DNA of 64,000 nt from Isurus oxyrinchus (lineage: Eukaryota). Below, piece after piece: positions 12,468 to 61,818 of this stretch. The notes under the pieces are model-generated. The model made no database searches. It saw nothing but the letters and a program-made list of their open reading frames with translations, and was not told the DNA's origin. The stretch is from NCBI GenBank assembly GCA_026770705.1, contig JANJGN010000034.1, forward strand, positions 4,278,001 to 4,342,000, read 5' to 3'. The position numbers and the translations under genes were made by a program. Each line of letters opens with the position of its first letter. Position 1 is the stretch's first letter.

Positions 12468-12503
12468 AAACTTCACCTCCTGGAGACCGCTGTCAAGTAG
12501 ACG
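12468..12503 (+). CDS. Micro-exon (36 nt, phase 1-1); ETSPPGDRCQVD, Pro/Gly hinge-like with Cys
   Basis: Pyrimidine tract then gttatag|AAACTT...AGACG|gtaagt (consensus donor); similar to exon 44342-44377. Confidence 0.8.
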
Positions 12504-13499
12504 GTAAGTGGAGAGGGATTGGATTCAGATCGCATGGCAGCAGTCATGGAACGTTTTAAGAAGGCAGTAATACAGCCAGCATTATAGTGGTAATATCTGC
12601 GAGACATTACTAAATGGGCCAAATCACATCTTTATTTTTTAAACGACCTTCAGGCTTTATGCATTCACACATCTTGACAGTTAGGGCAATAGTAGAAAAT
12701 TAAACATTTTGGATGAGCTATTTGCACAGATGTGCATCGAAATGCAAGAAGCAGACATTTGAGCCCAATGGTATTTTCTGTTGAGTGTGTCCCATGCGAG
12801 TGTTAACTCACCTGGCTTCACTGAATGGCATCCCAATTTGAATCTATCTTTTCTTGGGCGTTATTATGGACCTTTCCCTTAAAAGACCCAATATCATATA
12901 TCTTTGCTAGGTCATGTGAAACTACATTCAACATTCAGTCAACACACTTGACATGGAAGATTTTCGTTATTAGAAGTGATTGTATTTGTTGGGAAATTTC
13001 GATCAAAATAATTTGTGCAGGATATGTGATAGCCCTTTAGAAACTAAACTGAATGAATGCATTCATTGATGGTTCGAACACAAAGTATGATAAGCTAATT
13101 ATTGCTCGGATATGAGGTGACCCATCTTTCGAACCAGGTATGTTCCTTGAGTGCGAAATTGATAATAGTTAACATATTCAACTAGGCATCACTTAATTGG
13201 TGTGGTGACAGACATTCTGTCTAATTATAGCAGATGGCAGCCAGAAAGGTGTTTCAGATGGCCCCTTGCTTTGCTTGGCACGAGAGGGAAGCCAGAGGTT
13301 AAAATCTGACCTAAAGCCTGGCATGTTGACCAGCAACATCGATAATGGGTAGCATGGAATGTTGTCGATCATAAGCGGAGTGTGACCTCTTCTTAAAGGA
13401 TGACAGGAGCAGGTGATTTCATCATCAAGCAGCGATAATTCAGATTTGTCATATCCCGCACCTGTTCCACCTCTTGCAGATCTCCACTATTCATAATAT

Positions 13500-14170
13500 C
13501 ATGCACTCATTACATGGCCATTTTATTGAAGGTTGACCATCACAGTTAAGGTTACCCTTGCAGAAACACATTGGTGAGTTCCGATCAACCAGTCGTGGCA
13601 CCACACTGACATCTTGAGAAGCCCGATGGCCTTCTGATTTTATGTCCTAATCGCATGTCCCTGCCCCTCGACCTGAGACTCTGGCAGAATGATAAATTGG
13701 TACAGCATCATTGATGCATGTTTCCCTTGGATACCTACGCGGAATTTAGGTGTTGGTGAGAGGGCCTGAGATAATAGCTTTTGACACGGGATGGAAACGA
13801 TTGTTCCAACTTTTAGGAAAGTGTGCCCTCACGCATACATGCTTTTGCTGCAGATGAACCAGAGGATGGCCCTCCGAATGTTCTGCGTGTACACGCATTG
13901 GTTGCCCGGTGATTAATTGCATGACCTACAGCTGGACGAATTCCATAAAAGTTATGAAATCAAATGACTCATCTGAAGGTCAAATCTGATCTGAATTAAA
14001 TGCAAACCTAGATATCTGGCAAAACAACCTTTACTAACCTGTGGGTCTCCGAGATGCACTGGCATCTGCGAGATTTGCCAAGTTTCAGACTTATTTTTAT
14101 TTTTATGACCTAGTGATGTGCCCTGGCTAGTATTTGCTAAGAAGTCACGGTGAACTCTTGCCACGAAATC
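13500..14170 (-). mobile_element. PIF/Harbinger DDE transposase relic
   Basis: Minus-strand peptides in expected order: DFLANTSQG..QISQMPVH..QVSKGCFAR, HVCVRAHFPKSW, QKAIGLLKMSVWCHD..ARVTLTVMV; these match remembered Harbinger blocks (GISQS.VHRCI..V, VCARYPGS.HD, E.AIGLLKMRFRCLD). Confidence 0.65.
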
Positions 14171-14689
14171 AATCTTCGGAGCAGTGGCAGAAATTAATCA
14201 ATTGACGTTGCTCCCGACGTTTATCCTGACACCAAACACACTTGTAACAGGTTCCAATTATTCAGGCTGTTAAGGAGTTTTGAGAAACAGTGTACTCAGG
14301 GGAGCTCAAACGGGGCAAAGTGCTGTCGGGGTGATAGAGGGCGCAGTCCATTTTGGAAGCAGTGTGACAATTTTTAATGTCCAGCCTTTGAAAATGAGTG
14401 AATGGATGGACAATGGTTTGGGTAAGTGAATGAATGGATCGGTATTGTGGTTATAGAGTGTAGTTGGGTAGAGAGATGAATGGTTAGGCCTTTATGTGAT
14501 CGAGAGGCAAGCGTACTCAGAGTATTTGGTGTATGGGGAAGATGGGCATGTGAACATACTTCTATTTGGTTAAGTGGATGCTTGAGCCCGAGCGTTATTT
14601 CAGTAGATGCATGAAGTTTTTTTTTTATGGACATTCATTCCCACGTCGGCTTCTGTGTAATCTCTAGTAAGTGTCACACTCAATGAGCG

Positions 14690-14742
14690 CACGCGCACTG
14701 ACACATACACACACTCACACATACACACACAAATACATACAC
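14690..14742. repeat. Imperfect (CA)n microsatellite
   Basis: Direct observation. Confidence 0.8.
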
Positions 14743-15319
14743 CTGCAACTGAAAAAATCTTTCAGAGTTTGAAGTACATCTGCAATTGCAATCAAATTAT
14801 GAGATCAGAACCAAAAACTCTGGCCTGGCGTCCCTCTATGCTTGCATGATTACATTGCTTGAACTCATCATCATTGCCAATTTGCACTGACTAAATGTTG
14901 TCACTCAGCCTTGTAGTACCAGGCGGGTCATTCAAGTTTTCAAACATGGGGCTCCAGGTCATGTACGGAAACCACATAAATAAACATCACTCCAATATTT
15001 GTTTGGTTGGCCTTGGTCAGGCCTTGTACTGACATCCCTGGATTTATAATCTCCCACCCTTGCCATATGCCCGGCAAGAGGGTCTTCAGGGAGGAATCAT
15101 GTAACAGTGCCCCTGCTTGTATTGTGTACTAGGGTATTTTTCACTTTAGCACGGGATCGCATCAGCTACTGGCCTCTTGTTGTCTCGTTATGAGTGTGCG
15201 GCTGTAACTCCACTGATCCCGATGTTACATGGAGAGGATGTTATAATAGTTGAACTTCGAATACACCGCTCAGCATGAGGGAATTGTGCTTGGCTTGCAG
15301 GGGATAATTGTGTTTATTT

Positions 15320-15630
15320 ATTTATTTTCCTTTGTTCATTTTTAGCATGTGGGATTCGCTGCCTAAGTCATTATGTGCTGCCTATTTCTATTAACACCAT
15401 AAGCTGACTGGTTTGCTTGGTGATTCCATTGGACGGATAAGAGTCACTTGTAGATCTTCTTCCACAGAGCGATTTATTCAACGAGATGTTTGTTTTTTCT
15501 CACTACAATGAATTGCTAGGACACAATTTCAGATCTAATAGGTGAAATCAACTTTCTCCAGCTTTGGAGGTGGAATTTGAATGCATTTCCCCAAGCATAG
15601 CCTCAAGCTCTGGGTTATGATGACCCCGCT
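15320..15630 (-). mobile_element. SINE relic sharing its 3' tail with the LINE at 47250-48095
   Basis: catgtgggattcgctgcctaagtca is the reverse complement of the LINE tail motif (gccagcga..cacatccc.tg at ~48060 and ~44657). Confidence 0.45.
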
Positions 15631-17199
15631 TTAAACTCAAAGAGTCGCAAGTGAGGCCTTAGTGCTAATATCACTACCGCCACTGCTGGAATCTTTCCTC
15701 CACTCTTCGACCATGAATCATTAAAAGGCTGCCCGATGTGTGATAGCAAATGGCAAACAGTCCTGTGATGAGCACAAGTACTGCTCACTTCTGCTCACCC
15801 CTTCAACATTTATTCTACTTGAATATTCTGACCTATATTTCCAAAACCAATGTCCCGTGTCCGCCATCATCGCGCTTCAGTAGCATAATCATATTTAAAT
15901 GCATTGTATGCAATTAAGCTGAATATCCGGCGCTGCCAATAAATAGGAACGAATGATCTCCTGCCCGTCATAACCTACCACTTTCGATAAAATTCTACAT
16001 TCTGCATGCCATTGTTGATGCATGTTTACTGCAAAACAATTCTGCTCTTCCATAGCTGCCCGCTATTTATTCTATTGCCCTTTTTAACTGCACCGGGGAT
16101 AGGTTATCCTGTTTATAATTTAATCACTATATATTTTTAATTTAGAACAATATCGGGATTGAAAGCTTATCCGTGTCAGAAAGTAAAGTGGAGATGTTTT
16201 CTCCAGATGGAAAGGGTTGACGAAAATATTACATGAAAGCACCAAGAACAATTATGACTTTTGCTGAGCGAGATGTGGAGAAGATTGTGCCATGTTGTGC
16301 GAGCTACTATCTGTGACACAGAAATGCTTTATTTTTAATCATAAATATGCTGCATAATTCCAAAACAATATATGAAGATCTACAATGCGGATACAGGGTT
16401 ACCACGTGTGCCACAAACATGAAGAAGGAAAGCTTCAGAAAATTTCATGAAGCAGAGGCTGAAACGTAGGCAAAACTGTTTTGTAATCTGAAAACGTCTG
16501 AGATGAGGATTATATAGAAATTAAACATCAGCACATTGTTTATTTTTTTTTATGTTTGTTTCCTGAGATGTTGTTTCTACGTTGAAAGCAATCAATACAG
16601 GAACTAACCGTTCTGGTCACTTACAATCATTCATTCATGTGCATGGTTCTCCTTCACCTAACCCTGGATTAAGTTTTTGATCATTTTGAATGATGTAGGC
16701 TGATGTATAAACGCTGATCCAGTGCCTCTGGAATACAAAGGTTAACACGCATGGTTGCCTTCATTTAATCATCAGATCCTTACATCCTAAGTGCATTTAC
16801 TCTGCACAGCCATTGATCTCCAGGGGCGTATCTTATTGATGCATCAATGCTCATTGAATTTTGCCATATTTCTACATCCCGCATCCTCAGTTGTGCTCAC
16901 CATACGATTGATTATCATTCATCCCTGGTTGACTTCGGAAGGTCCACTCTGAAATTCAGCCTCCAATTCTAAATTCTGCAGAGCGCAATCATTAAAAAAC
17001 AAAAATGCTTTTAGATTTGTGTTTTTGTTTTACCTTAACTTGTATCTTTTTTCCCCAATAGCTCCAACAGTGTCTCACTCCCGTTTTTTGACAATACAAC
17101 ACTGGAGATCATTGGGAGCCCAAATTACCTGAAACAAACATGTGCATATATATCATTGTTTTTTTTTTACCTTCATCCAATTGCATTCTTGTCTTCCAG

Positions 17200-17226
17200 A
17201 AATTCAGGCAATGCTTCAAAAGACCA
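17200..17226 (+). CDS. Micro-exon (27 nt, phase 1-1); EIQAMLQKT
   Basis: cattcttgtcttccag|AAATTCAGGCAATGCTTCAAAAGACCA|gtaagc; similar to exon 47123-47152. Confidence 0.8.
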
Positions 17227-18744
17227 GTAAGCATCGTTCTATATTTTTGATGAATTGGTAATTGAGCGAATCAATGAGATTCCAAAAGTGAATCAGCCTA
17301 GATCTGTTGCATCTAATGTTCTCCTGGACAGGGGTTAAAAAATGCCAGTTCAAAATTAATATTGAGAACTCTCGTACAATATATGCCATAGCACAGGCAC
17401 TCGCCATCCAACTGGATGGGTATTCAATTCGTTTTAGTACAGACGCCTCTGCATTCATCCTGTGGATTGTGTAGGTGTTTCAATGGAATAACTAACCTTA
17501 TGCTAGTGGAGCTTCGTTCTAAATTTGTAAGGTTATGTACTCGAAACATATCTCTTGATAGGAAGCAAATAATAATCCAAAACATTTGACGCATTTGTGC
17601 AGAAAAGCCAGATTATTTCTACAGTCTAGAACACATTATTTGAATTGTTTTGCGCTGATAATTTCATTGTTTCCGTTACAACTGTACTTTTGGGCGTTGC
17701 TTTAAAAGTGGTTGATATTGAATCAGCTGCCCCTATGTCCACCATTTAAATTTCCTCCTTGTAGACAGCATTACGAAGTGATCTTGATGACACCGTTTAA
17801 TATGGTATCACTCATCCTAAATTTTACAATTAATGCTACTTGGCACGACTTTCATATACGAGCAGAGAGGATGCGATTTTTAAGGAATGACTCCGACAGC
17901 ATTATCTGGAGTTCATACATATGCAATGAAACAATGAATCCCGGCACTCTGATCCTCCACAGTTGAGCAGCTTGAGCCATACAAATCGGCTCAACTGTAA
18001 AAAGAAAGCAGTTTATTGAAATTGGGAAACTTACCCAATCCTTTCACACGAGTTCTGCTGTTTTCAAAACGTACTGTTGTTTAAGATTTACTGCTGATCA
18101 CATTCTTGGGCGTACAGGATCCCCCTTCGAAGTAAGTTAATGTTAAGACTTTGCAAGACATCACAGGCACTTTTTTATTCTTTTCATTCTTCTTGTTCAT
18201 CGTTTTCCCCTCTTAATTTGATCAGAGTTTAATATTTGGCTGTAGGAACTTGATTTGAAGAAAATGTATTTCGAATGCTTTCAATTTATGTTTCTTTTTG
18301 AGGCTGCGTTTCTCACTGAAGTTGATCACTTTTGAGTGATTGAGGAGCCACTGCTCCTTCTCCTTTATTAAGATTTCAGATATCACTTGGTCACACTGGT
18401 CAAAGTTATGCTGCTGACGAGACAAACCAAAGCAACTGTAGAACAGCAGTGCTTTGGACAAGCAAGCTAAAGAAAACTGAACACATGTGCCAGTAATGTG
18501 AAAAGTGTGCTTTACCATTTGGAACGCAATTCGAATCCATATTCAGGAAGGACATTGTATGGATTCAAGTGAAAATAATCCCAAATAAGTTAAAATAATG
18601 TTCTGATTATGCAGGAGAACATAATATGTGATACTGATAGAGAAAGATGTAGTGGGATTCGAGCATAAATAATTACATAACCAGTTGTGGGAAATATGAT
18701 GAGTTATATAATGCATTTAATTTATTTTATTTGCCTCTTTTCAG

Positions 18745-18771
18745 TGGACACACTATTTGAAAAAAAGAAAG
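18745..18771 (+). CDS. Micro-exon (27 nt, phase 1-1); MDTLFEKKK
   Basis: ttgcctcttttcag|TGGACACACTATTTGAAAAAAAGAAAG|gtatgg; 21/27 nt identical to exon 49679-49705. Confidence 0.82.
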
Positions 18772-19010
18772 GTATGGATCCCCCAACAACAGGAATGAAA
18801 TTTAAAAAAAAAACGGATATGACAAAGAACAGAACTCAAATAGTCAATCGCAAGTCTGTAGTACCTACTATCTCCATATAAATTAGAAATTAATGCAGCA
18901 AATAGCAACGAAATTGGAGAATCTATTTCAAATACGGTGGAAAATAAATTATCAATGTATATTCTAAAGCGCCACAAATATAATAAAATGAGGTTTGTTT
19001 TCTCCAATAG

Positions 19011-19028
19011 CAACAGGGGGAGATTTTC
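19011..19028 (+). CDS. Micro-exon (18 nt, phase 1-1); ATGGDF
   Basis: tttgttttctccaatag|CAACAGGGGGAGATTTTC|gtaaga; second in-frame acceptor would start the exon at 19017. Confidence 0.55.
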
Positions 19029-19779
19029 GTAAGAAAATGTCATCAACCCATTGCATAGACTGGTGATTTATATCGATTGCTTGTTTAATATAGCAGGCTG
19101 GTGTGACTGACTTGGATTTTGGAAAGGCTCACAATGGATATTTCCAGCAAAGATAGCAGACTTGTGCTAGGTTTGAACGTCAAATGCATTTCATTGGATC
19201 AATACCTATATCTGCTAAAGTAAGCAATAATTATCTTAGAACTTGGCACAACATATAATCGAGTATCGATTCGACTTGGAATAGAGCAACAGAATTCACT
19301 ATGACGGAGAGCAGAACACCAGTTTTTTGAACAATCCAGGCATTGCAGCGTTTCATCTACAATGTGCTTTGATCGTCTGGGCATCATTTTCCTGAATCTG
19401 ATTCGACATTGCGATCTGCTACTCAATGAGAGAGTCGTCCCCTGCAAAATTTCCCAATGTATTCTCCATTTGTGGAAGCAATTATTGATGCTGTGAAACA
19501 GTTGCCAAGAACACAAAGTTGTTTCCCTCTTTCGTATTCCCCATGTGCAGGATATGTTATCATCTTTGGCACTGTTGTTGGGCTTTTTTCTGCAGCCTGC
19601 AATGGCCCCATTGAGAATCAATCAACATTGCAAATGGCATCCATTCTATTTTCATGAATACAAAACTTCGGGAATAATGTATAGTGTCATGAATATCACC
19701 AATAATATAATGCTGAAGATAAACAAGCCCCTAACTTGTGATGCAATTTCCAACATCTCATTATTATTTTCTTTTCCAG

Positions 19780-19815
19780 ACCTGAAAATGTGCGAAATTG
19801 ATCGTGTGAAGAATG
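19780..19815 (+). CDS. Micro-exon (36 nt, phase 1-1); (H/D)LKMCEIDRVKN
   Basis: ttattttcttttccag|ACCTG...AGAATG|gtaaga; strong splice sites. Confidence 0.8.
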
Positions 19816-22800
19816 GTAAGAGCCAACGATGTGAATCTTCTTTAAAACGTCAATGAACAGATAGGAAGTGCAGTTGATTCTTGGCACATTTCCCGTTCAA
19901 ACATAGCGAGCACGTTCTTCCAGTAGCAGGGATCGATAAAAAAAAATCTCTTCTGGTTGACATTTTTATCTGTGTGCGTTCATGTTGACAAGATATATTC
20001 CTACACACTGTTCAAAAAAAGAGAAGTTCTTGATAGTTATTTCTGCTCATTCATTTTGAGCTCAAGACAAAATATTTTGGCTCTCTCCTTTTCCCACTCC
20101 CCCTTGCCCTGTCGCTTCCCTTTTCGGTGCTGCTATTCAATCGTACTCCACAGTTGTTTCAGATATTGCCATCTAGGCCATACCAATTCGATTTGAAATA
20201 AAATTTGGGTAATCTTGCTGCTTTGAAACATTCTAATATATGAATTGCATGTAGCAATCCACAGTCTAGTTGGGAAAACGAATTATTTCTTAGACGTTGC
20301 AATTTCTTCATTTGAACTCCTCTAATCATTTCACATCGACCTTCCCGTAAGGATAGATAACAATCCGAGATCCTATATTGTGTCGAAGAAATTGAAGTTT
20401 CCTCAACGCTATGCATCCTGGTGTATATCCTTCGAATGCTATCCAGTTTTATTACAATTATAGGGTGAACTCAGCTAAATCGCTCTTTTGTTCTGGAAAT
20501 ATCTTGTCCAAATTTCCACAAACCTTCCACTCTTAACTGTTATTACGAAGCTCATCGGAACCTCATATTCTGATCATTATTTCACTTTTTTTGTTAATGA
20601 TAGATAACTTGTGTTGTTTCTGAATTCTGCATTATGCATCCCCTGTAGAATGGTTGAGGAAAATATTGCATTCTACAGCTCTTCAGTTGTGGCGAAGAGC
20701 CAGATCCGACAGGCAGTATTATTTCTGCTTTGCGGTGTACTGTCAGAACTGATGCGTCACTCAGTTTTTATTTCAGATGTACAGAATACTCACTATTTTG
20801 TCACGATATGAAAAACGTTCATTTTGCAAATTCACATATCTATTAATTAACATGGCAGAAAAAACATTGATCCAGTCCGAGAAAGGTGGGAGGTTTTTTT
20901 GTTAACCTGTACGACTTATGCTTAACGTTGTTGAAATAATAATTTATTTGAATGCATTCTGAATAGTCTAAAGCTCAGAAGAGGTTATTTATCCCAACAC
21001 ATGGTATCGTCCACACCACTGTCTATTAGATTATCAGCATTATTTCCATTTCTTCCTCCTTGCAGCAGATGTTTAAGTGACACCGTGGAGTCAGAGAATC
21101 TGTCCTAGATCCTCTTGGAACATATCCATAGTGCAAATATTCGATAGCGGTACTTTACTTTATTAGATGTTTAGATCTGGCACACACTGAAAAGTTCATA
21201 TCAGCAAACGATTCTTCAGGACGGCGGGGCACTTTATTAAGGGTGCGGATTGTGGCGAATATGCATGGGGAATTTAAGGAAAACTAATGCGATGTTTTTT
21301 AATGAAGCGGCTGTTAATAAGTATGGTGATGGTTGAGTCATAAATAATTAGTTATTTCAAAAAAATTGTTAGGTTGGCATTCGATTTGAAATTGATTTGT
21401 TCGGGATATCACTTGCAAATTGAAGGGACTTTTCGGCAGGTAGACAGGATTCGTTCGATGGGCCAATTGGTAACATTCTCTGTGGTAATGTTTGTCTGAC
21501 TCTCTGATTGATTTCTGTCTCGTTTCTTCATCATTCGTGCCATGAAATGGATAGCTTTCTTCCCATTTGTTTTGTTTTGATTTCCTGTAAAATGTTTTAT
21601 TGATTTTCTTTATGCCATTCGTTAATATAGTTCCATGCTACATTTTTTGTTTCCCATTGTAGTACTTTTTTTCTGACCTTTCTTTGCAATGACCCCTTTT
21701 AATATGATGTTTCCATGTGATTGTCGTCTCTATATTTTGAAGCCTAGGGTTTCTTTATGCATTTATTCTGTCCTGATAGCTTAGTGGCGAGAAACTTTAT
21801 TTTTCCCCTTTTTAGCGCAATATTTTGCTTCAATTTTGTTGACATTGTTATAAAGGTTGTTCTTTGATACTATGCATAATTGCTTTACAATATCCTTGAT
21901 TAATTACTTTTCTGAAATACTGTCCTTGGCCCCAAGATGACATATTTTATTTTACCTATATCCGGCCCAGATATGACTCCAATTCACGCTCTCCTCTAAT
22001 ATAAAATATATAATTTTGCAATGTTATATTCATTTAACATAAATTCCCCGAATTTTAAATCTTTATTCAGCTTGGAATTAGTCTCAATTATGTGTCCTAT
22101 TCGCGAAATCATACTTCTTAGTCTTTTTAACATATGATGTTTTAAACATTCCGACACGCATTTTAGAAACGTTTTAAACTGCTGACAATCATGTCTTGCC
22201 TCTGTCCATGAATATTCCGGTGTTTTAAGTCATTTCTTGGTGTAGTTCTCTGCTGTTTTTTTTATTTAATAATTAATTCTGTAGCAGTTTTTGAATACTT
22301 AATCCACGATTTCTTCTGACAGAATCACGTGATATCTGAACAATCCATCTTACTTACGACCTTTTTAAAAATCTTTATGCATATACATGATAATTCAGTC
22401 TTATTCTGTTTTTTTTTCATTCGGATAGTTCCAGTTACGTTTGCCAAGACTTTACTTCTTGCTCTGTGTTAATTATCCCTGTCTTGAAGGTCTTTCAGTA
22501 ATCATTAATTGTAAATCTTCACAACAGCATTAATAATCTATGCTTGCAGTTCGCAAGTGATAAATGTCTTGTCATATAACTGAAATAGTCTCCCTCGTGA
22601 TTGCGCATTTTCAGCTTTAATTGCTCTGCCATGCCCCATGTAAATGTTACATTTCTGCGAGTACGCTTGTCTGTTTATCTTTCTTCCTCTGATGAATTCC
22701 ATAGGACAACATTAACATATATACATAATGAAGAGGTATTCAGCTTGACAGATACTGGTTGCTGGAGAATTATCGATCGAAGGCAAATGGAAGAATTCAG

Positions 22801-23026
22801 TTGCCATCATTTGAATAACTGCCATGGAATGTTCTACCACCTCCTGTTGCCAACGGACGGTTGACAGGGTCCAGAGCCAACATTTCACCGTAAATATAAC
22901 CACCACAGCTGTGCAACATTGCGTCAAATCTGTTCTCAGATATCTGACTGGAGCTTGTACTCATGTCCCTGTAGTGTTATTTAAACCGTATAACGTACGT
23001 TTCAGGGGCGAGAGTTCGAAGTAGAA

Positions 23027-23027
23027 A

Positions 23028-23058
<31 letters not shown>

Positions 23059-23059
23059 C
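23027..23059. repeat. (CA)n microsatellite
   Basis: Direct observation. Confidence 0.9.
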
Positions 23060-23399
23060 GTTGACTTGAAATAGCAGTCTTTATGCTTCCTACAATTTCA
23101 ACATTTGTATTTCGGTTGGACAAACTGCCAGCAGTACGTCAGGAGAAGTAAATGAAAACTAAGAGTCCTAGTTTTATCTACGCTTCAGCAAATCATAAGT
23201 GTAAATGGATGGCATGTAAAGAAAAAATCCTTCTGTTGTAAAAAGAAAACAGGCGGCAGTAAAATCGTCGAAGAGGTCAGGATGGTTCAGTTAAAAATCG
23301 TCCCTGTTTCAAGTTGCTTTCTAATCACATGGTCGACAATCTGATGGGTCCTTTGTTGAACCTGTGCACAAGAGGTTCCATTTTTACCCTATTGTTCAC

Positions 23400-23825
23400 A
23401 GCTATATTAAAAAGGTCGCTCTTTCGACACTGCGACAGATGTTTGTACTGTTATATTAAAACCCAGCACTGAGACCACAATAGAGAATAGCGTAAGCGCA
23501 GGTGTTGCCTTTCTGAATTAGATTTTCAGGCAAGAGCAAGCATTCCCCTTGAGCTCCATTCAAATTATCTCGTGACGCTATTTAGAAGAACATAAACCTT
23601 TGCCGCTTTGTGCGCTGCTCAAGTTTATCCCATAAGAAAGAGCAGTAAGATCAGGTTGCTGATCATTACCACATTGCTGTTTGTGGTGGAAGGTTGTGCG
23701 CACGTTGTCTATGCTTTCACAACAGTGTACGATTGCCAGCATTAGGAAAGTTGTTCAGGCGATGTAAAGGGTTAGGAAATTACCCAATTTCAGAAAAAGA
23801 GCACTATACAATGGAACTGTTGATG
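23400..23825 (+). mobile_element. Deu-domain SINE relic (SacSINE1/AmnSINE1-like)
   Basis: Contains tcattaccacattgctgtttgtgg and a 3' gcactatacaatg tail, as remembered for DeuSINEs. Confidence 0.45.
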
Positions 23826-23909
23826 CACAATGCATGTCGGTTTCGTAACCTTGAGCTGTTTGTAATCAAATGCTTTCCAATCAAATAAATTATATCGAAT
23901 TTATTTCAG

Positions 23910-23945
23910 AATTGAAGGCTCTAAAAATAGAGATCAGAGAAGCAG
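23910..23945 (+). CDS. Micro-exon (36 nt, phase 1-1); ELKALKIEIREA
   Basis: atttatttcag|AATTG...AGCAG|gtcagt; amphipathic, heptad-like peptide. Confidence 0.75.
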
Positions 23946-24355
23946 GTCAGTAAGCAATACGAATTCGATAATATTCTGAGAAACGTGTGGCAGTAAATCG
24001 ACATCACCAAAATTTCAACTCAACCGACTCTATCGGCTCTGTTACCTATTAGAGTGTTGCTTGATATTGATCTTTCTTCAAACCATTGCATGGAACTTAT
24101 GGCGGGCAGAGGATGAGATGCAACCCGAAACCTACCAATACCTACAACTAAATCGTATCTGTTAATTATTCTTAGCAAGCAGTGTCCTTCCCTGTTAGTT
24201 GATGGTCCGGTATGGTGCTTTGGCCACAGGTACTATCCTGACAATTATATCCTCAGTGAAAGCACCAACCTGGGCTTATATCGTTATTAAATGCTATAGC
24301 TCTAAAACCTCTGTATTCTTGTATTCTTGATTTGTTTTTTTCTGTGCATGAACAG

Positions 24356-24382
24356 AGCAAAGACGTGATGCAGCTGAGACAC
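24356..24382 (+). CDS. Micro-exon (27 nt, phase 1-1); EQRRDAAET
   Basis: tttttttctgtgcatgaacag|AGCAAAGACGTGATGCAGCTGAGACAC|gtaaat. Confidence 0.65.
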
Positions 24383-24504
24383 GTAAATAAAAAATAGATA
24401 GATGATATCTTGCAAAAATATACGACAATTCATCGCAGTAGCATTTTATTTTTGAGAGCAGGCATTCGAATTCTAATGAAATATCTATGTATTTTTTTTC
24501 CCAG

Positions 24505-24531
24505 AGCTCCTTGCAAAGTGTAAATCAGATG
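24505..24531 (+). CDS. Micro-exon (27 nt, phase 1-1); (Q/E)LLAKCKSD
   Basis: attttttttcccag|AGCTCCTTGCAAAGTGTAAATCAGATG|gtgagt; consensus sites. Confidence 0.8.
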
Positions 24532-32510: not shown

Positions 32511-32519
32511 AACTCATGT

Positions 32520-49678: not shown

Positions 49679-49705
49679 TGAAGACTCTGTTTGAAAAAGA
49701 GAATG
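49679..49705 (+). CDS. Micro-exon (27 nt, phase 1-1); MKTLFEKEN
   Basis: tttgttattttcatag|TGAAGACTCTGTTTGAAAAAGAGAATG|gtaagt; paralog of 18745-18771, found where the repeat order predicted it. Confidence 0.85.
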
Positions 49706-51169
49706 GTAAGTGTAATTTCACCCAACGATATTCCAACATTGAACAGCTTATTGTTGCTTTTTTGCTTGCAAACGCTGATTGTCAGTCCTGAATTTGACGC
49801 TATAATTAACAGCAGAAAAAAATACAAGCATTGAGATTCATTGCATATTCTTGTTCTTGGTTTTCTCTAACTGTCTAGTAGGGGATCTCATTCCGATACA
49901 AACCAAGCCTCTTTGTGGTTCTGCCCTCTGCACTTTCATTCGTCTCAATGGCATAATAGAGGAACGTACCCACATTTGTGCAATCCCTTTTGTGTACTCA
50001 ACAGATTTCAGCTTCACATTAAACAAAGCACTGGTTGTCGTGCGGTGAGGGTTGAGAAGTTTCCAAGTGACATCGAATAACCGTGCACCCAACAACTCAA
50101 ATTGTGCTCGTGCTAACTTCAATGTAATATATTTACTTGAGGTGAGGATGATATTGAAAAGTGGAGCCAGTGGAATGGACGGCCATTAACACGAATGATC
50201 GAACTGATTACATCAACTTACGTCACTGTGTCTGGGTGAAAATTGCACACAACAAAAATATATTTACTTTGTTTACCGGCTGAAATGTGTCAGGCATTGA
50301 TTCCGATTTAATGATGCTCTTCATACCTTGATTCAGTTTCAAATTGATTGTATATGGAAATTCACTCATCCCCTGCTGCTTGAAACTTTTCAGATAGATC
50401 ACATTTTCTTCTTTGAAGGGCCTTATGCACATGCATATTAATTATTTAAGAAAATGCCGAGGCTCCCTTCGAACATTAAAATGATAAAGCAGGGGATTTT
50501 TTCTAAGTGTCTTCTTCCCACTTCCGTAATGATAGGCTGCAGCATATTCTTTCTGTCAGTTGATAGAGTAACTCATTTACATTTCTTGCTTCCAACCTCA
50601 CCACATTTTCCTGGACAGTGGCGTTGCATTTACTGCTGCCTTCTCCATTGCAATGCTTCCAAAATCTGGACATCTCGGGAGTTTAGAACGAAATGCGTCA
50701 GAATCCTCCCTTTATAAGACCTTAGCAGGCAGACAGTCAAGTAATGACTTTTTGTCGGCCATTAGTGTAATTAAATGACCTATTAATTATTCCTCATTAA
50801 TCAGCATTGTTTTAAGTTCCTCCATCATTTTTGCCTTTTGCCTCTCTAATATTCTTTGGATGCTCCTGTGTTTGCTGCCGTGGAGGCAGAAATATGATTT
50901 CTAATGTTCCACAATTAGTTGTTTACCAGTTAAATATTGTTCCTTTTCATCCTCTCTTTGATCAAAGTTTATTCTTGCTGTTCCCATCTTGTGTTCATCT
51001 ATTTGTAGAATCAATTACTTGAATACTGTTTTAGTTGTTGCTTGAACCATAACAGCTTGAACGTCTGTGTCACTTATCCAATCTTGGTTATGGATATTGA
51101 TCGTTACATTTTTTCTAGTGGACTACGTGTGACTAATAAATTCCTGAGCAAGCCTTTATAAAGTCAACC

Positions 51170-52190
51170 GCTACAAAGGCAAGAACGGAAAAAAGAATAA
51201 AACCAGACTGGCTACCCGGAATCGACCCAGGCTCGCGTAATGACACAACAAATCCCGGTCATGCAAATCACCAGTCCAGCTATACAGTGAGATTAGTCAA
51301 CCAATATCATACATAGACATAGGCACGGAATCATACGTTACGGATAAGTATCCAGACATCTGAATCACCATTCCTGCTGGGAGGACAGGGTATACCCAAA
51401 TGAGATGGCGGCACAGTGGTATAAAATTTAGAGGGAGTTGCTCTGTTAACGGGTCAGGGATCCCTCCTGGTGTTTACCACATACCGCCATAGTTTCTTCA
51501 TCTTGAGCACCACTTGGAGGAAGCACGGGTGTGGGGAGTGGGTGAGGGGCAGGGGGTGGGGTTGGTGGGAAATGCACAGAATGTACTCTGAGTGGGGGAA
51601 TTGAATGTCCTTCAATCCCCAGCACTAAGTCTGGCTCGATAGCAACACCACAGATTCAGCTGGCAGACTCCTAAATGACTTGTGTTCTACACTGGCTCTG
51701 CAGCAGATGGATAGAGGGGAAAAGCCTACTTGAACTCAACTTCACCAACAAGCCTCATGAAATTTTATCTGCCTGTGGCAGTATCGATGAGGGTCATCAC
51801 CGCACAGCCCTGGCTGAGTGAACATCCCTTCTTCTCTTGAGGATACCATAAATCGTTTTTTATGGCGCTTCTGCACTTCTAGGATAGACTTCGTACAAAT
51901 CTGGACTAGGCAAGTAAGGTGCACTGCTTTCCATCAGCAGTAACAGACTCAAGCACAAAAAGCAAACCCATGGAGGGACATGCCCCATTATACAGTAGGG
52001 TCAGGGCATCAACACTGATTCAAGGATGATTGCAGTAGTGCATGACAGGAGCAGCACCAGGCTAACTAACAATGAGATTTGAACTTATTGAAGCTACAGC
52101 ACAGGACAATTTTCGTGACACACAGCATAATCAGCTGGGTAAGAGGCCGGCCTAAAAGATCCTATAACCATCTGATCAGACCGAAACGCT
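51170..52190 (+). mobile_element. LINE endonuclease-region relic (CR1/L2 group)
   Basis: Remnants DIGTESYVTD, DGGTVV and NVL*VGELNV resemble APE endonuclease motifs. Confidence 0.55.
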
Positions 52191-52199
52191 GCAGTCCTT

Positions 52200-55100
52200 C
52201 CACATCTCATAGTGAAGGTCATGCAGCTACCGAGTAACCGTTTGTGATTCATCCCCTAGGGCACAAAATTTTCATTCAATTTCAGCTTTCAGAAATGTCA
52301 GCTTTTAGAAAATAAGCTTACTTTTTTATTATTATTATTAATAATATTGCCGAAATATAAAACCTCATTTTCACATATAATAATATTTGTGTCACGTCAT
52401 TGCCAAATCAATTAACCTATCCACGTTATTCTCAAAACTTCCATCCTCATTTGCTTCCTTGGTATACTTAACTTCTTAAACTAACTTTGGTCAGAGAGTT
52501 TAGCAACCATAACTTCATCCAAGTCAGTTATATATATTGCAATATATTCAGGTTCCAGCAATAATACATGTAGCACACCACTCCTAACATCTTGCCAACC
52601 AGAAATTATTAATTTATCTCAAGGTTCTTTCCCCTGCTAGCTAGCCAGTCTTCACTTTATGCCAGATTATTATGCCATACACCAACAGTTTGAATTTTCA
52701 CAAAATCCAATAATATGGCACGTTGTCAAGCACCTCCTGGAAATCTAAGTGCAGTTCATCCACGGGTTCTTTTTTTTTCACTGCACGTTACTTTTTCAAG
52801 GAACTTAAACTGTTTGAACATGATTTCCCTCTCAGAAAAAGGTGTTGAATCTGCCTGATGAGATTAATTTCTCCACATGCCCTGATATAATGTCCTTAAT
52901 AATAGCGCCGAATTGTTTACCTAATGAAGATCTTAATCTAACTGTACAGTCGTTTCCTGCATTCTGTCTCTCTTGTTTTGTAATAAAATAATTACAATCG
53001 CTATTTTCCCATTTCATGGAAGCAGCCAGAATATGGGAAATTTTGGAGCATGAAATACAATGCATTTGGTATGCCATTTAAAACTATAAATTTTAGCGCA
53101 TCAAGGCCGAGGGCCTTGTTATTCCACCGTTCAAATACTTTTTGCAAAAGCACTACCCAGCTGTTTGCAGTTCTTTTCATTAGCTCCCTCCATTGCATTG
53201 GCTGATTTAATGCTATTTCAGGGATATTAGTTGCGGTCACTCTAGTGAAGACGAATGGAAAATACCTCTTCAATTTTACTGTCATCTCCATAATTTCCAT
53301 CTTCAATTCCCCAAACTCGCTTTCTATATTACCGGCGCTAATTTTGCTGAATATTTTCATTTTTTTAAATGCCTATTCGTATTATGTCTTATTTTATATA
53401 TTTCTAGCTAGCCTTTTCTGTTAGTCAATCTTTCGCTCGTTGTTAATCTGTAGTAAATTTTTGCTAACTGATATGTTTTGCTGTTGTCTGCATTGCCACC
53501 CATTCTGGCACAAATATATACTTTGTCTTTAAGATTTATGTTATCTTTAACTATTATTTTAGATATCGACAGAAGGAAGTTCTGCCCTTGGATTTCTTTT
53601 TTCTCCTTAGAATATATCTATTGTGTGTTCTGCGATATCCCTCAACATGCCGGCAAATGTCATTCTATTAAACTAGCCTTCAGCTAATTTTCCAATTCAC
53701 TTTATTGAACTCCGATTTCAGGTGCTCATAACTATTATTTTTAATTCCAAAATATTAGCCTTCGACGCACCTTTCTCTCCATCAAACAGATTGAAAATTC
53801 AGCCGTTTTAGGATCACTAGGGGTACCTTCACAACGAGGTCACTAATTAATACTATCCCGTTGCAATGTACAAGATCCAGCGTAGCAAAATCTCTCGTTG
53901 TTTTCTGAATGTATTTTCGACTTAACTATTCCGAAAACATCCAGGCCCTTGTCATCTAGCTACCTTTGCTCATCTGATTGTACATTCTGTATGCAGACTA
54001 AACTCCCCCATAAATACGGCCGTTACTTTCTGAGAGGGCCACATTATGCCTAACTTTGCACTCTGTCCTACATTGTGGATACGATTAGCGGGCCTGTACA
54101 CCAGTTCTACATGTGACCTATTGTCTTTACCATTTCTCATCTCTGCCCAAACCGTTTCTGCATTCTCATTTCCCAAACTGAAGTCATCCTACGCCTTTGT
54201 GCTAATTCCATCACCAATTAACAGAGCAACCCATCCATCTTTTTCTAGCATCCTTTTGTTCTGGCATCCCGTATAGACTTCAATAGTCTGGTCCAAAACT
54301 GCCTTCCTCCAACTTAATCTCTGTAATGGCTTATGTCTCGTATTTACTTATTTCTATTTGAGCTATTAGTTCATCTGTTTTGTTTCCATTGTACGTGCAT
54401 TCGGATACTCACCATTAATTTTCTCCCTTGATTATTTTGTAACCCCTAGCCATTTAAGGTGCTTTGCAGTTTAACATTCACCTTCTATACTTCTTCCTTT
54501 TGTCTGTTTTGTAATTTCTCGTAATTATACTTTTCTCTCATCCATTGCCAATATAGTTGTATGCACCAGGTCTACTCAAATTTGATAGTTCCTCCGCAAA
54601 ATTAATTTTAACATCTTCTCTACTTCTGTAGTTAGGAGGTTCCCTTGAACATTCGACCCAGCATGATACAGGTCTGGCATTTGCCAATGACACAGCCCAC
54701 AGTTGCCCACATAAATGGACAATTGCTGCCACAATGGTCAGTGAGGCGTGCATTCATTTATTTACTCTCATTTGCTGTATGACAGCCTGAACGTGGCTGA
54801 GGCAATAAACGACTGGTTATTACATTTGCCGTTATTCTTTTAATGTTAGTGATTAGTTCCTGATACTGAATATGCAGAACATGTTTTCTTTTCCTGCCTA
54901 TGCTTTGGTATGCATATATTCCAAAACGACAGGATCCTTCCCCTACCACTCCATGTTCCCTTCCAGCACTACGCAGATGTATCAAACGCAAGCACGGGGT
55001 AGGCTATACAGCCTTCAGGACTCTTGCTCATTTTTGCAGAGAACAGATTCAGCGCACTCGCCATACTGTCTCCATACCAGCTCTGCATTCATTATTTGCT

Positions 55101-55700
55101 CACCCCACTTGTATTGCTTCCTTGACTACTGTGGCGTGGTCTGTCAGCTTATTGCCTGTGAATCAGTTATGCTAAACCAAACAAGGTGAAAGAACTCCAA
55201 ACATGGAGTACAATGCAAAACGTTGAAGATTCCGCACTCTTGCCCTCTGGCTCTGCTTATTTCTTCCTCTATGCTGTATCCTACACTATTGTAACTTTTA
55301 GCCCTGTTCGCCTTTTCGAAATGAGGCATATTGCCTTTATGAGTAATTATCTCTGCCAAAACTTCTTTTGCAAGCTGGTTTATTGAACTAACGTCACATG
55401 TGCCAATTCCGTAATCAATTAACTGACCAACCCCTTTCCTGCCTCACTTTGTAGAACCTTCTTCTCCCTACTAACTAATCTGATCAGAAGGTCCTATCTT
55501 AAAGTGTTTTATCGCTACCACAACTAATTCGCCAGGTTAAATCCCCTGCCCTGATGCACCACAGTATCTTCAGCTCAGCCTCCAGATCAAGGACAATGAG
55601 CTGAAGGTCCTCGGAAAATAAAATCTTATGGAAGAACATCGAGGAGCATTCCCAATCTGCAGCCTTGAGCCGTCAATGTCCTACCATCCTCAATATTTGT
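52200..55700 (-). mobile_element. Decayed CR1-type LINE
   Basis: Minus-strand AETVWAEMRNGK..VELVYRP..VFMGEFSL, LKRYFPFVFT, KALGLD, VRLRSSLGK..IIKDII. Confidence 0.8.
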
Positions 55701-56249
55701 CAATGGAACAATTAAAAGCTTTATTTAGTTAATGGTTTTCCATTCTTATATATCACATGAAAATTTGATTATTGTTTAAAAAATACATAGGAATATCATA
55801 AAGCTTAACAACTTAGCAAATAAATCTCTTGATACTAACCAAACAGTTAGCTCCTTCGCTTTAGGAGACGGACAACCCACCGTATAGCGTTAAAATTTTG
55901 GATAACGCAAAGAAAGGGATTTGCATTCTTTCCACAAGTCCATCCCTCACCCAATTCTCACCGATCTTGTTCACAGTCACGTTCCAGTTCTATTTCGCAA
56001 TGAGAGGCCTGTATCAAATTGCCCTGAAAGGAAAGATTTAACTGAGCCTCAGGTGTATAAAAAAAAAGCATAATTAACATGCATTAGAAAACTAGCTTCA
56101 AATCCGCTCCAATGGATAGCTTGTCTAGGCATTCATAAGCCAGGATGAAATTTAGAAATTAAGCAGTAAATTTCAGTTAGATGTGAAATGTGAAATGCAA
56201 ACCAAGTACAATTTTTAGACAGCCATTAAGTTTCCTTCACTCAATCAAC

Positions 56250-56770
56250 TCCCAGCAACCTTGTTCAAATCACAGTCCAATCTCAGTTTATGGAAAAGTA
56301 TGTATCCCAAAAAGTTTATGCCCCATACTCGCTTCCTCCCCTTCCCCTCACATGAATGAATCTGCTGAAATGCAAAACAGTGGTCAGTCTTTTAAGCCTC
56401 ACTGCGTTCTCTGGTCTTGTTCACACTAGTTGCAAAAACAGAAATCTATTGACTCTCACAAGGGCTCAGGTTCGTCTACTGCACACTTCCAGGCCCATAT
56501 ACCTCCCTTACTTGTTGCCACACCCTCCAATTCTTGCGTAGGTGCCAAATGTGGAATGCATAGCCTAAGCGATATGACCTCGCTCTGGAAAAGTTGCAAA
56601 TGTGACTGTACGATCCTTGAATATTCGCTTGTTCTGAGCTCTGACTCCAGCTGATCACTAGTAGCCGGAATTTCTCGAGCTGAAGTCAATTACTGCAGAT
56701 GCATTTGCCTTGGACACGTTGGCATCCACTATTCACATATGCAATAGCTCCAGCAGATCCTCTTCCCCAC
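56250..56770 (-). mobile_element. CR1 ORF1 N-terminal (zinc finger/leucine zipper) relic
   Basis: Minus-strand QLESELRT..FQSEVIS resembles CR1 ORF1 ELE.EL..LR..F.EVVTP. Confidence 0.5.
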
Positions 56771-58329
56771 CATCTTCGCATTTTTCTTTTTCAAATGACT
56801 TTCAAGCTTCTCATTGCTACTCAACTCTAACCTGCAGTTGTGGCAGATAATTTAACAAGCCTAATAGTCGAGAATCATTTTCAGGTCGCTTGCAGTGACT
56901 TTAAGATAGCAATTATATGATATGGCTGAAGAGGGAAGACCCGAACTCACATCAAACTCAGATGATTTGACAGTTCGCCTGCGATTTCAAGCCTTGGAGA
57001 ATAATAGCTAAGAACTGTGACATTGCTGTCTGTCGAATTTGGGACAGACTGTCTCCCATATCACGTTGGTTTTTAGAAACTGAGACGTAAAGATATACAG
57101 CAATGAGGTGTTCTTTGGCATAAATTACACGGCCCTTTCCTCTTGCTTGAGTGCGAGGAAATGTAGCCTCATTCAACTGTAAATAGGCCTCTTGCCTGAT
57201 ATGCCTGAAACAATGTTCCAACAGTCACTTCAAAGCAAATACTGCAATTGTTTATGCTGAAATTTGTTCTCTATTTTGGGTTGAAGGGATCGCAGAATGC
57301 CTTACGTTATTTAGGGTCAACACAGATCCAAGAATTAGTTCTCTGAGATATCTTTTCTGACAATGGCAACGTTTTCATATTGACGCTGACTAAACAAATG
57401 GTCTCCATGCCATTGATAATGATAGCCAAATTCCGGCTTTGTGTATGCATTCTGTGTCTTTTTTTTTGGTTCTCCCGATCGTTTTGACACCTTTAACAAA
57501 GCAGGACATTAATGTACAAAATGAAGATATGGCTGTTAGTGGCTCGATAATGACAGGGCGTTGGCATTTAATCTACGCAATATTCTGCAGTTCCCATAAC
57601 TTGATTATGTAACTTAAGGATAAGCACACAGAAGATGGTAGAATTCCTGACCAGTAAACTTAGTTAGTTCAGCCTAGAACCTGCTTCCTCTTGGACCAGT
57701 AAGGTGCTTTGCTCGAGTAACTTTGAAATACCTCAAGGCCGTTGTCTCGGAAATTACTTGGGCTAGGGCAGTGCTGCCATTGCTGGTACTCTAATTCGAA
57801 TTAAAAGAAAACTAAACTACAGTGAGCAAACGTTGAGTTCTTTCCAAAATATTTCAAAGACTCCTCTGAAGAAGGGTAACTTGGAGAAATGCTGCAAACT
57901 GTGACCGAGCTCCCCAAGACTTCTGTCGTTGGGAATGCTGCCAGAGACGGCGCTGAAGCTCACCTCTTTGCGCTGATAATTGCACCAGCCAAGTAATGTA
58001 TCCAAGCGGGCAACATTAGGACTGAAGCAGCAACATTACACTAATGTGCTTGCGCTCTCTGAAATTGATCCCAGCCTCCCCTTTGTGCTCAAAACCAAAG
58101 GTCAGTTCAGCATCTTGAACTGAAACTGGCTTCACAGTTTGTAAGCATTGACGTTGCGAGCTTTGCAAATAGCATTTTTACAGACATGATCACCAGCAGT
58201 TTAATTTCATGCTGGCAGTGAGTGAAAGTATGACATTTAGGCAATCATGGAGCGCAACACAAGTCACTCAAAATTCCCATGGCTGCCCTTGTTCCCTAGA
58301 CAGCATTTAGTTATGCATACAGTTAAAAA

Positions 58330-60790
58330 TGATACCTCATCTGGAGAGTTCAGACCGGAGCACAGAGAGTGTCAGGATGCAGGATGCACGGCAAAGGTTT
58401 CCTAGGAAATTGGCACCATTTACAGTAGAGCTGGAACCTGTAAAACCGGAATGGTTTCCATCTCATTGACCGATTTGCTAGTGCTATTGTGAAGGGGAAA
58501 ATCAATTGGAATGGTAACTGGGACTCAATAGTTATAATTACGGAATATATCGAAGTTGCATTAGGAGGCGCAGAAAGGAAAAGCATAAGTATTAGTTGGA
58601 GTCAAGGGTAACGTGATACCTTAAAATTGGAGTGACTCCGCACGTGACGATGTGAGAGAATGTCTGAAAAAAAGGTTGGTGGAACTGAGGGAACAAAAGA
58701 TAGATGCAAATATGATGTTATGGTAAAAACAGGTAATTGGTACAAAGAGAGTTATTTGCTACATACGCCTGAATAAAATGGTGCTCATCAAAGATCTGGA
58801 GGCAATGAATGGTGGAAGATGGCAGTAAAGATTGACATTCCAGAACTAGCGGGAGCCTATATCCTAGTATATTTGAGGACAGCGTTCCTTTTTTCTGCTA
58901 AAGCTAAGGAACAATAAGATCAAGGATCAATCCAGTAACAAAGTATTTTACAGGTGAAGGAGAAACGTGAATTTGTTGAGAACGGATCTGGACTAGGTAA
59001 ATTGGAATCAATTTTTTCCAGTCAGAGCTGAAACCAAACCATTATTCACTTCAAAAATGAAAGAGTTTCTATTTTCTTAAGGGATATTACAAACCTGTCG
59101 AACAATTGTGGTGCAAAATATTGCCGAGCTTCCTAGAATTCCTAAAAGTTAAGAAGCAAAATGAATTAGGAGAAATGCTAAGTGTGCATATTTACAGTTT
59201 CATATTACATTTGAGAATAAGGCTCCCTCGAGATTGTTCAAAGCAGAATTTTCAAAAGCGACAATCAACAAGAGGCAAATATAATCTAATGAGTGTTAAC
59301 ATGAAAGAATATCAAGCTGATTTATTTTGACATGTGAGGAGTAAAAGTGTGATAAAAAGAGGAGGGGTCTCTGTTATTCACAAGTAACGGGTTTTGCATA
59401 TGGCGGCAGGTGACATGACGGACGCATTCATTTATCACTTTGACTTTGCCATGACAGAACATGGTGCCAAAGTCATTGGTTGTAGGGAAGGTGGTTGAAA
59501 GTTGTCATGAGTGTAAAATTATAAAGGAGAGGTATTGCATAGAATGACTTCTCTTCATGTTCATGAAGTTTCCAGGGTTATTTGAGATCAACAAAAGGAT
59601 GCTGAGAGAACGTAGGGTTGTCTACGCAGAGGCACAGGGCATAATTTTACGGCCTCTGTACAGATAATGCCGGCATTGTTGGACATGATCCGAAATTCTA
59701 GATTATGCTATGAGCCTTACAGATTGGGCAGGATCCTATATAATCCAACTCCTTAAGAATGGTGACAAAGGGTAAAATGAGCAACTAAAGCCCTGTTAGC
59801 AAGCCATCAGTAGAAGATGAAACGTTGAAATCCATTGTAACCGTTCTGATAATTGGACTTCAAGAATATTATTATATGGTTAGTCAGCGTCAACATAGAC
59901 ATTTCAAAGGGGAAACTTGTTTGACATACATTAAGTTGAAATAAAATCATTTTCAACCTCCTTGCAAGCATTTTACACAGCGAGGAGCACCGCCCTGCAT
60001 TTCAATTTATGTTATTTGATAGGACTTTTATTAACACACTAAATTTAATGTAAGGACGTATTTAGTAACTTCTTTCGACAGCAATGATAGGAGGAGCCGT
60101 TAATAATATACAATATAATTATAAAGGTTTGTCGGAGCAGATAGACGTGTGGTAAATGCGCATACATCAATGAATGTTGCTTACATGTGAAGAGGACACT
60201 TCGAAAAGCACACATGACCTTCGGCTTTTAAACAGGACCATCGAGTACTGAACCAAGGGAGTGATCATAATTCTGTATAAAAACATTGTTCTGCATTGAC
60301 AGGAGTATTGCGCCCGGTTATGGGTAACACACCTCTGCAAGGTTATGAAGGTATTAGTAAGAGTACAGTAAATGTGATGACAATGGTGCCAGATATCCAG
60401 AACTTCATTTACGTCAACAGGGTGAATAGGCTGGCAACATTCCCTTTGTAGAAGACAAAGTTGAGAGGAGATTTGATTGAGGTATTCAAAATCATGACTG
60501 ATCAGAGCAGATTTGGTACCAATAAACAGTTTCCATTGTAAACGATTTAACATGTTGAGAAGAGAATCACTGTATATGTGTATCCACGTACCTGACCTGT
60601 ATGGAAATGTTTTATTGAATGATGGAGGCAGGTTGAATCGTGGTTCTAAAGTGGGACCCTGGGGTATTTAAACTATATGAAATGGGCGAAAACAGATTTT
60701 CTGTGGTACGCGGAAAGACAAGGCAGTGGAACTTGTTCAATCATTGTTTCTGAGAGCATATACAGGGATGGCTGAATTACGCTTAATTTT
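58330..60790 (+). mobile_element. Decayed CR1-type LINE ORF2 and 3' end
   Basis: Plus-strand remnants colinear with the other CR1 copies (gagaggagatttgattgaggtattcaaaatcatg = RGDLIEVFKIM; gatggctgaat tail). Confidence 0.7.
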
Positions 60791-60971
60791 TTTACATTTT
60801 GTGGTACGATTTCCTCACCTCTTCTATGAGAACGAACGTTGGGAGGTTGTGTAGGTGCAACTGTGAGCGCTGGAGTGTTTCTATCACACTTTGCCAAGTC
60901 AGCCATCCCCCCTACTTCGTATGATTTCCTCCTGCAATATTAGAGCTCATCATTTTGATATTCCTTTTCAG

Positions 60972-61007
60972 AGCTAAGGGATTTGTGGAAAGATACAAAA
61001 GTAAAGG
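60972..61007 (+). CDS. Micro-exon (36 nt, phase 1-1); ELRDLWKDTKVK
   Basis: atattccttttcag|AGCTAA...TAAAGG|gtgaga; EL(K/R)xL start like 23910-23945. Confidence 0.75.
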
Positions 61008-61791
61008 GTGAGAGTAGAGGAAAATTATGGAACTTGTTTTAGCTGTATAATTATTATGTAGCACGAGTCACAAATGCAAAGGTCATTCTCTTTAATTTAT
61101 TTGTTCATTCTAGATTATTGCGTAAGGAGTTGCAAATTTTAAATATATGTGTGAATGGTGAATTGTAAATGTAACAATAACTATATCATTTTGTGAATGG
61201 CCTCCACCTTTAACTTGTGATTTTTCCTTCTGTATAAAAGTTATTATATTACAGCAACTAGCTTTCACCCACAACAGAGCATTGCTGAAATATTTGGAGT
61301 ACCGTACAGCAAACATTTTAAAATAAACATAATGGCTATAAAACCTTGCCCCCACCAACACACACACACCCACGGCCTGTAACCTCCTCCAAGCACAGAA
61401 CCAAACGATAGGCCCACAGTGAATGGAAAATGTCCACTGGAACATTTTCCTTTTTACCTCTTCGAGTATTCCAGCCTTCCACTGCCAGAAATAAAAGAAA
61501 TCTGGATTCCATTCCTAAAATGTTCCTCTTCGCTACTGCCATTAAAACATTCCATAACTAATTTTATGGAACTTTGTGCTTATTGTCCTAAAACCAGCTT
61601 TTATTTTTCGGCATCAGATTCTACTCTGCAATGAGTCTAGCTAGCGAATCGGGACCTTTTCAGGGTAAATGCACCACGTAAATTGTTTTTGAGCGTGTTT
61701 CACATCAATCTGAAAAGGAATCATGCTACTTTTCAACAATTAACTCATGTCAATAATTCCTTATTCTAAAAAAGAACTTTAAACTTCATAG

Positions 61792-61818
61792 ATGCCCAGC
61801 TAGCTGATAATATACAAG
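61792..61818 (+). CDS. Micro-exon (27 nt, phase 1-1); DAQLADNIQ
   Basis: tttaaacttcatag|ATGCCCAGCTAGCTGATAATATACAAG|gtaaga. Confidence 0.7.

Follow-up and report, generated by a model that had tools for sequence, protein, structure and literature searches.

The micro-exons of the window (the whole 64,000-nt stretch analysed, G000:C34:4278001-4342000, from the 4.98-Gb genome of Isurus oxyrinchus) are most probably the middle of a single cartilaginous-fish gene of about 810 kb, with about 245 exons that would encode a coiled-coil rod followed by a B30.2 domain. On sequence evidence, the 245 exons are likely to be joined across the 810 kb into one full-length transcript. The chain consists of phase-1 micro-exons of 21, 27 and 36 nt, all on one strand (+), and extends from about -272 kb to +536 kb relative to the window; one 36-nt and one 27-nt exon together make three heptads.

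Within the window we count about 18 micro-exons. All ten exons of the original prediction were recovered at their positions; they are 27, 30 or 36 nt long, open in phase 1, and each is flanked by an AG acceptor and a GT donor. Eight of the ten peptides occur verbatim in a six-frame translation. The two MxTLFEK peptides are absent from such a verbatim search because the codon for their M is split and depends on the last A of the previous exon, which the 17200 and 47123 exons, both ending in A, supply. A generic scan of the window with an approximate splice-site model yielded nine 36-nt and six 27-nt exons among 68 candidates on the + strand, where these are the two commonest lengths, and two 36-nt and no 27-nt exons among 69 candidates on the - strand. 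Most window exons recur in the same order in a sister gene (C34 5.38-5.61 Mb), and the comparison revealed two more, at 2654 and 24356. The features are as follows, with identities to sister-gene exons.

1..64000, +: whole window, most probably from the middle of the predicted ~810-kb gene, which spans about 4.005-4.817 Mb of G000:C34
2654..2680, +: 27-nt phase-1 micro-exon absent from the original prediction; moderate support, colinear sister exon 56% identical
4517..4552, +: 36-nt micro-exon; splice-site scan, sister exon 69%
12468..12503, +: 36-nt Pro/Gly candidate exon; weak support (strong donor, negative trained score, sister counterpart not found)
17200..17226, +: 27-nt micro-exon, first copy of a duplicated pair, ends in A; sister 74%
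18745..18771, +: 27-nt micro-exon (xTLFEK), first copy; sister 93%
19780..19815, +: 36-nt micro-exon; splice-site scan, sister 64%
20859..20885, +: 27-nt micro-exon; sister 63%
23910..23945, +: 36-nt micro-exon; sister 72%
24356..24382, +: 27-nt micro-exon revealed via the sister gene; 67% to the colinear sister exon
24505..24531, +: 27-nt micro-exon; splice-site scan, sister 74%
26621..26647, +: 27-nt micro-exon; splice-site scan, sister 81%
31124..31159, +: 36-nt micro-exon; splice-site scan, sister 64%
31935..31955, +: doubtful, either a 21-nt exon or a short alternative last exon (31954 in the original prediction); acceptor present, sister counterpart not found
42751..42777, +: 27-nt micro-exon; splice-site scan, colinear sister exon 56%
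44342..44377, +: 36-nt Pro/Gly linker-type exon; Gly/Ser-rich 36-nt slot at the colinear sister position, 53%
47123..47152, +: 30-nt micro-exon whose last base is A, second copy of the duplicated pair; 70% identical to the sister exon over 27 nt
49679..49705, +: 27-nt micro-exon (xTLFEK), second copy; sister 85%
60972..61007, +: 36-nt micro-exon; splice-site scan, clear sister counterpart not found
61792..61818, +: 27-nt micro-exon; colinear sister exon 63%

Our first reading of 31935 was as a last exon, and it was dropped as unsupported. Contigs from five RNA runs of the same species cover only short repeat-like stretches of 12400-32399 and of the B30.2 region, and speak neither for nor against splicing.

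A scan of the flanking scaffold for further units, as the original prediction proposed, traced the exons far beyond the window, as described above. Across 664 kb around the window, candidates on the + strand peak at 36, 27 and 21 nt (75, 57 and 43 of 723), and the 577 candidates on the - strand have no such peak. A model trained on the chain called, at one score cut-off across the whole gene, 212 exons of 21, 27 or 36 nt on the + strand versus 2 on the - strand, a count that is partly circular because the training set came from the + strand; in a held-out test on the neighbouring 197 kb, the same model found 24 exons on the - strand and none on the + strand. The working set of 245 exons (7,254 nt) takes in lower-scoring candidates as well as two exons of the original prediction added by hand, with a median spacing of about 2 kb. 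Its cleanest calls, at +286 to +347 kb, are 48 exons that alternate between 36 and 27 nt almost throughout and that join into 506 stop-free codons with a hydrophobic period of 3.50. When the whole working set is joined, 3 stops arise in 244 junctions, so some exon calls are false or missing. For 12 exons from -6 to +32 kb, taken before two further exons were found, a clear peak at 3.5 was not seen; the peak lies at 7.18, 3.6 times the mean.

The chain is made of blocks that differ in style, from 21-nt exons at -207 to -92 kb (where most of the 36 exons of this length in the working set lie), through a mixed middle, to the strict 36/27 alternation at +286 to +347 kb. The first block holds about 35 single-heptad 21-nt exons, some of them duplicated with their introns at about 1.2-kb spacing, and is the most BG-like part of the chain. 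Chain-wide, the 2,417 predicted residues include 73 cysteines, many of which fall in an LxxC pattern in the 36-nt exons.

Both ends of the gene could be proposed, with different degrees of certainty.

L079:4507-5027: terminal B30.2/SPRY exon, a 172-codon last exon with a strong phase-1 acceptor, lying about 538.5 kb away from the first base of the window
L024:7537-7647, about 272 kb upstream of the window: candidate first coding exon, unconfirmed

Pfam assigns the terminal exon to SPRY (E 2.9e-14), and it is the only B30.2/SPRY exon in 864 kb. The start has two candidates, the second being a short hydrophobic ATG candidate at -268137; a genome-wide search found no paralog of the candidate first exon, and some gene models of relatives start hydrophobic. 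Only about 30 kb separates the head of this gene from that of a gene on the opposite strand. Motif scans of the region found no RING or B-box exon, and no hydrophobic phase-1 (transmembrane) exon passed. An Ig motif had no match in an open frame across 1.06 Mb, giving 3 chance hits among stops, and none of 37 butyrophilin Ig-C matches fell in C34 2.7-7.5 Mb.

The gene has company on its contig. C34 carries four close B30.2 paralogs, at 2.71 (-), 3.47 (-), 6.40 (+) and 7.50 (+) Mb, and a second chain starts head-to-head with the first at about -303 kb, on the - strand. Within the predicted spans of the four sister genes, 35 stretches of 10 kb were sampled, and 34 of them held exons on the same strand as the B30.2 exon towards which they run (11 of 12 on the - strand at 2.71-3.71 Mb; 23 of 23 on the + strand at 5.0-7.5 Mb, one of which also had a single - hit); none of five stretches sampled outside these spans did (2.4, 2.6, 4.9, 7.6 and 7.8 Mb). 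This strand consistency suggests that the paralogs are whole genes of roughly 0.5-1.4 Mb, and it is likely that five genes of the same build stand side by side at 2.7-7.5 Mb. In one sister gene, at G000:C34:5.565-5.586 Mb, there is a regular 36-27-27-27 unit of 39 residues; as this is not a multiple of seven, it implies one heptad stutter per unit.

Conservation between the window gene and the sister gene of 5.38-5.61 Mb is confined to exons. Seventeen colinear pairs, 11 of them from the window, are identical at 376 of 519 nt (72%) compared with 33% in their 40-nt flanks, and give a dN/dS of 0.35 (bootstrap 0.26-0.50), a ratio biased downwards since the pairs were picked by likeness and order. 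That the chain is a decaying pseudogene or a run of chance splice-like sites is extremely improbable given this ratio, the bias in strand, length and phase, and B30.2 frames that are intact in five of five genes, even if a few candidates (12468 and 31935) lack sister-gene counterparts. Clear counterparts of 12468, 31935 and 60972 were not found in the sister gene.

The original prediction had described the window as a duplicated multi-exon module with a period of about 30 kb, on the basis of five exon pairs recurring in the same order. Judged against all same-length pairs among the exons from -80 to +140 kb, two of these pairs exceed ordinary family likeness: 18745/49679 is among the most similar 0.2% of 465 pairs, and 17200 and 47123 are each the other's best hit, in the top 7% by DNA and 1.3% by BLOSUM. 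A recount of the MxTLFEK pair agrees with the 21 of 27 identical nucleotides and two synonymous changes among six differences that had been given. The other three pairs are ordinary, with 12468/44342 less alike than the median pair (82% of 153 pairs equal or exceed it, and only Pro/Gly content is common to the two) and 23910/60972 and 4517/31124 standing at 28% and 20%. Pair spacings vary from 26.6 to 37.1 kb, and the duplicated pair sits 50 kb apart in the sister gene, so that the 30-kb spacing is incidental. Self-comparison of the DNA, which had been suggested as a check, revealed no 30-kb repeat: the proposed units are not paired by any of the region's 60 longest self-matches, and the long repeats of the window, at 36-42 kb and 63-64 kb, are decayed interspersed copies. 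For the six exons after 18745 (19780-31124), spliceable counterparts were not found between 49705 and 82000. The lack of similarity in flanking introns was borne out: in none of the five pairs do the flanks outscore 400 random pairs.

Two or three copies of a ~30-kb multi-exon module, whether an internal repeat or small paralogs, are therefore very unlikely to make up the window. The module would account for two adjacent exon pairs that are reciprocal best hits, share an unusual A|TG junction and are preceded by Pro/Gly exons, but not for three ordinary pairs out of five, six exons of the first unit without a counterpart in the second, or the 50-kb spacing in the sister gene. What persists is an old duplication of two or three exons only, in keeping with the earlier idea of selection on the exons alone: conservation is exon-only, dN/dS is about 0.35 and both xTLFEK copies exist in the sister gene. 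Each window copy is nearer to its positional sister counterpart (93% and 85%) than to the other copy in the window (78%), which suggests that the two-exon duplication is likely to be older than the split from the sister gene. The choice posed between one very long gene and tandem paralogs comes out on the side of one gene, with a single B30.2 exon and no additional head exon across 864 kb; paralogs do exist, but as whole genes of 0.5-1.4 Mb and not as 30-kb units.

The basic repeat is instead one pair of exons of 36 and 27 nt (21 residues), which recurs many dozens of times. We propose that exon blocks were duplicated in tandem again and again as the gene grew, and that the two-exon repeat is one old instance. 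Younger duplications that include introns show how the chain grows. At +142 to +196 kb, a ~27-kb tandem duplication with 83-86% identity, introns included, is a true multi-exon module. A 7.4-kb tandem duplication at +347,475 to +362,371, with 99.2% identity, carries a 27-nt and a 36-nt exon, and is either very recent or an assembly artefact.

Relatives of the gene occur in other cartilaginous fishes. B30.2 relatives with 51-61% identity are annotated alone in two sharks, and a profile search recovered proteins with coil and SPRY in catshark, electric ray, skate and elephant shark, that of the elephant shark being 1,697 aa long. RING and B-box are absent by Pfam from all seven relatives, which have coil and SPRY only, and the B30.2 domains of the window gene and its cartilaginous-fish relatives form one clade (100/100). 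The annotated proteins XP_042192744.1, XP_038672306.1, XP_069775384.1 and XP_055510696.1 share this clade, the coil-plus-SPRY build and 9-residue isoform steps, but at 175-1,697 aa are shorter than the chain predicted here; they have been named automatically after TRIMs or 'nuclear-pore anchor'. Isoforms in catshark, electric ray and elephant shark differ by internal steps of 9 residues, once 6, and the 9-residue steps fit skipping of 27-nt exons. Peptides of 89 36-nt exons score 22.9 against the elephant-shark coil versus 19.8 +/- 0.5 for shuffled and reversed controls, and show zero excess over controls against an unrelated protein with coil and B30.2. Two further proteins, P0009 (bowfin) and P0103, combine a hydrophobic segment, a repeated coil and B30.2 in a similar build outside the clade.

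The shortness of most annotated relatives (longest 1,697 aa, others 175-460 aa) would suit a division of the 810 kb into a number of shorter transcription units, or strongly used alternative starts and ends, with B30.2 only in the 3' part and the window exons in coil-only products like the chicken zipper protein. We consider this unlikely. The short models may be truncated annotations, and two of them are a B30.2 exon with little else. Blocks of differing style would also suit separate units, but 21-nt exons near 5' ends are found in samples of two sister genes as well, and a second head-type or B30.2 exon was not found in 864 kb. A possible internal end is the 31935 acceptor, which reads into a stop after 19 codons and is followed by AATAAA at 32480 and 32898; this site has no sister counterpart. 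Chicken BG tails offer a precedent, in that intron read-through often cuts them short (PMC5938342). A single long gene remains the preferred reading.

Several known systems resemble parts of this gene. Butyrophilins have very short 'heptad' exons followed by a B30.2 exon (PMC6790196), and the window gene likewise has short heptad exons ahead of a C-terminal B30.2 domain in one last exon. Butyrophilins, however, consist of IgV, IgC, a transmembrane exon and few heptad exons, whereas the window gene has more than 200 exons, mostly of 27 and 36 nt, and no Ig exon was found in it. PMC4046983 and PMC5938342 describe chicken BG tails as presumed coiled coils with 13-36 exons of 21 or 24 nt per gene, and a soluble tail that acts on actin-myosin. 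BG genes and the intestinal zipper protein, as presented there, share with the window gene many 21-nt exons, a split first codon, an expanding tandem family and conserved tail cysteines. BG genes have IgV and transmembrane exons and lack B30.2, in contrast to the window gene with its B30.2 domain, about 7-19 times more exons and 36+27-nt unit. TRIMs (RBCC-B30.2) also place a coiled coil ahead of B30.2, but their RING and B-box were not found in the window gene or its relatives. Enterophilins have a long leucine zipper and a C-terminal B30.2 domain, are not known to carry Ig, and are mammalian and far shorter than the window gene. Enterophilin-1 is reported in a review to bind sorting nexin 1 (PMC13749957). 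By their defining features, the window gene lies outside butyrophilins, BG and TRIMs, and by analogy it would work like an extended butyrophilin or BG tail. Our literature search, which mostly left subscription journals outside its range, returned no paper describing these genes; supplements of shark genome papers could list them.

We hypothesize that the ~245 frame-preserving exons encode a stalk of about 2,400 residues capped by B30.2. It could form a parallel coiled-coil dimer, about 350 nm long in the full-length case (with ~0.15 nm for each residue), whose two B30.2 heads would bind a cytosolic partner at a distance. Since all exons are in phase 1-1 and have lengths divisible by three, skipping would shorten the stalk and keep the frame, and rod length may thus be adjustable. 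The protein might then correspond to a cytoplasmic tail of butyrophilin/BG type, enormously lengthened and stripped of its Ig domains, that serves as a tether or spacer, a mechanism that we put forward tentatively and by analogy.

It is possible, if somewhat doubtful as a complete picture, that the locus is an undescribed cartilaginous-fish cluster of five genes of 0.5-1.4 Mb, each with roughly 150-400 micro-exons encoding 1,500-3,500-residue coiled-coil rods with B30.2 heads, the length tuned by skipping 9- and 12-residue exons and the tether derived from a butyrophilin tail. If so, the exon number of the largest gene would be on a par with that of titin, an extrapolation from about 60 exons counted in 230 kb. 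Some 4.8 Mb of C34 is filled by the five predicted genes, of which the TRIM-named annotations in relatives appear to catch only part. The cluster is an extreme natural case of a coiled coil built from frame-preserving micro-exons, in both sharks and rays and the elephant shark, and a test case for splicing hundreds of micro-exons across ~2-kb introns; it also bears on how the genes for butyrophilins, BG and B30.2 proteins evolved. By comparison, the 30-kb module is of minor weight.

The B30.2 domain offers some hints of ancestry. Its profile matches BTN3A1 best among solved structures (119 bits, versus 98 for TRIM21), and top hits in a word-index search are TRIMs at 29-35% identity; aimed at longer homologs, this search returned only generic B30.2 proteins. 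In the B30.2 tree the genes form their own clade, and 5 butyrophilin and 16 TRIM rows are not separated from each other, so the tree leaves butyrophilin and TRIM origins undivided. A very large B30.2 cluster at C21 82-118 Mb holds most of 150 scored matches and includes two members of the window-gene clade, at 89.7 and 91.3 Mb; C21 is also the contig with the best butyrophilin Ig-C matches. The position of these two members among B30.2 exons and such matches hints that the genes with coil and B30.2 may have originated there.

At 36,160-41,710 and 63,350-64,000 the window also contains an interspersed element in several decayed copies, some in each orientation. Pfam named none of five repeat ORFs; in a motif, the ORF fragments resemble Penelope-like retroelements, to which the element may belong.
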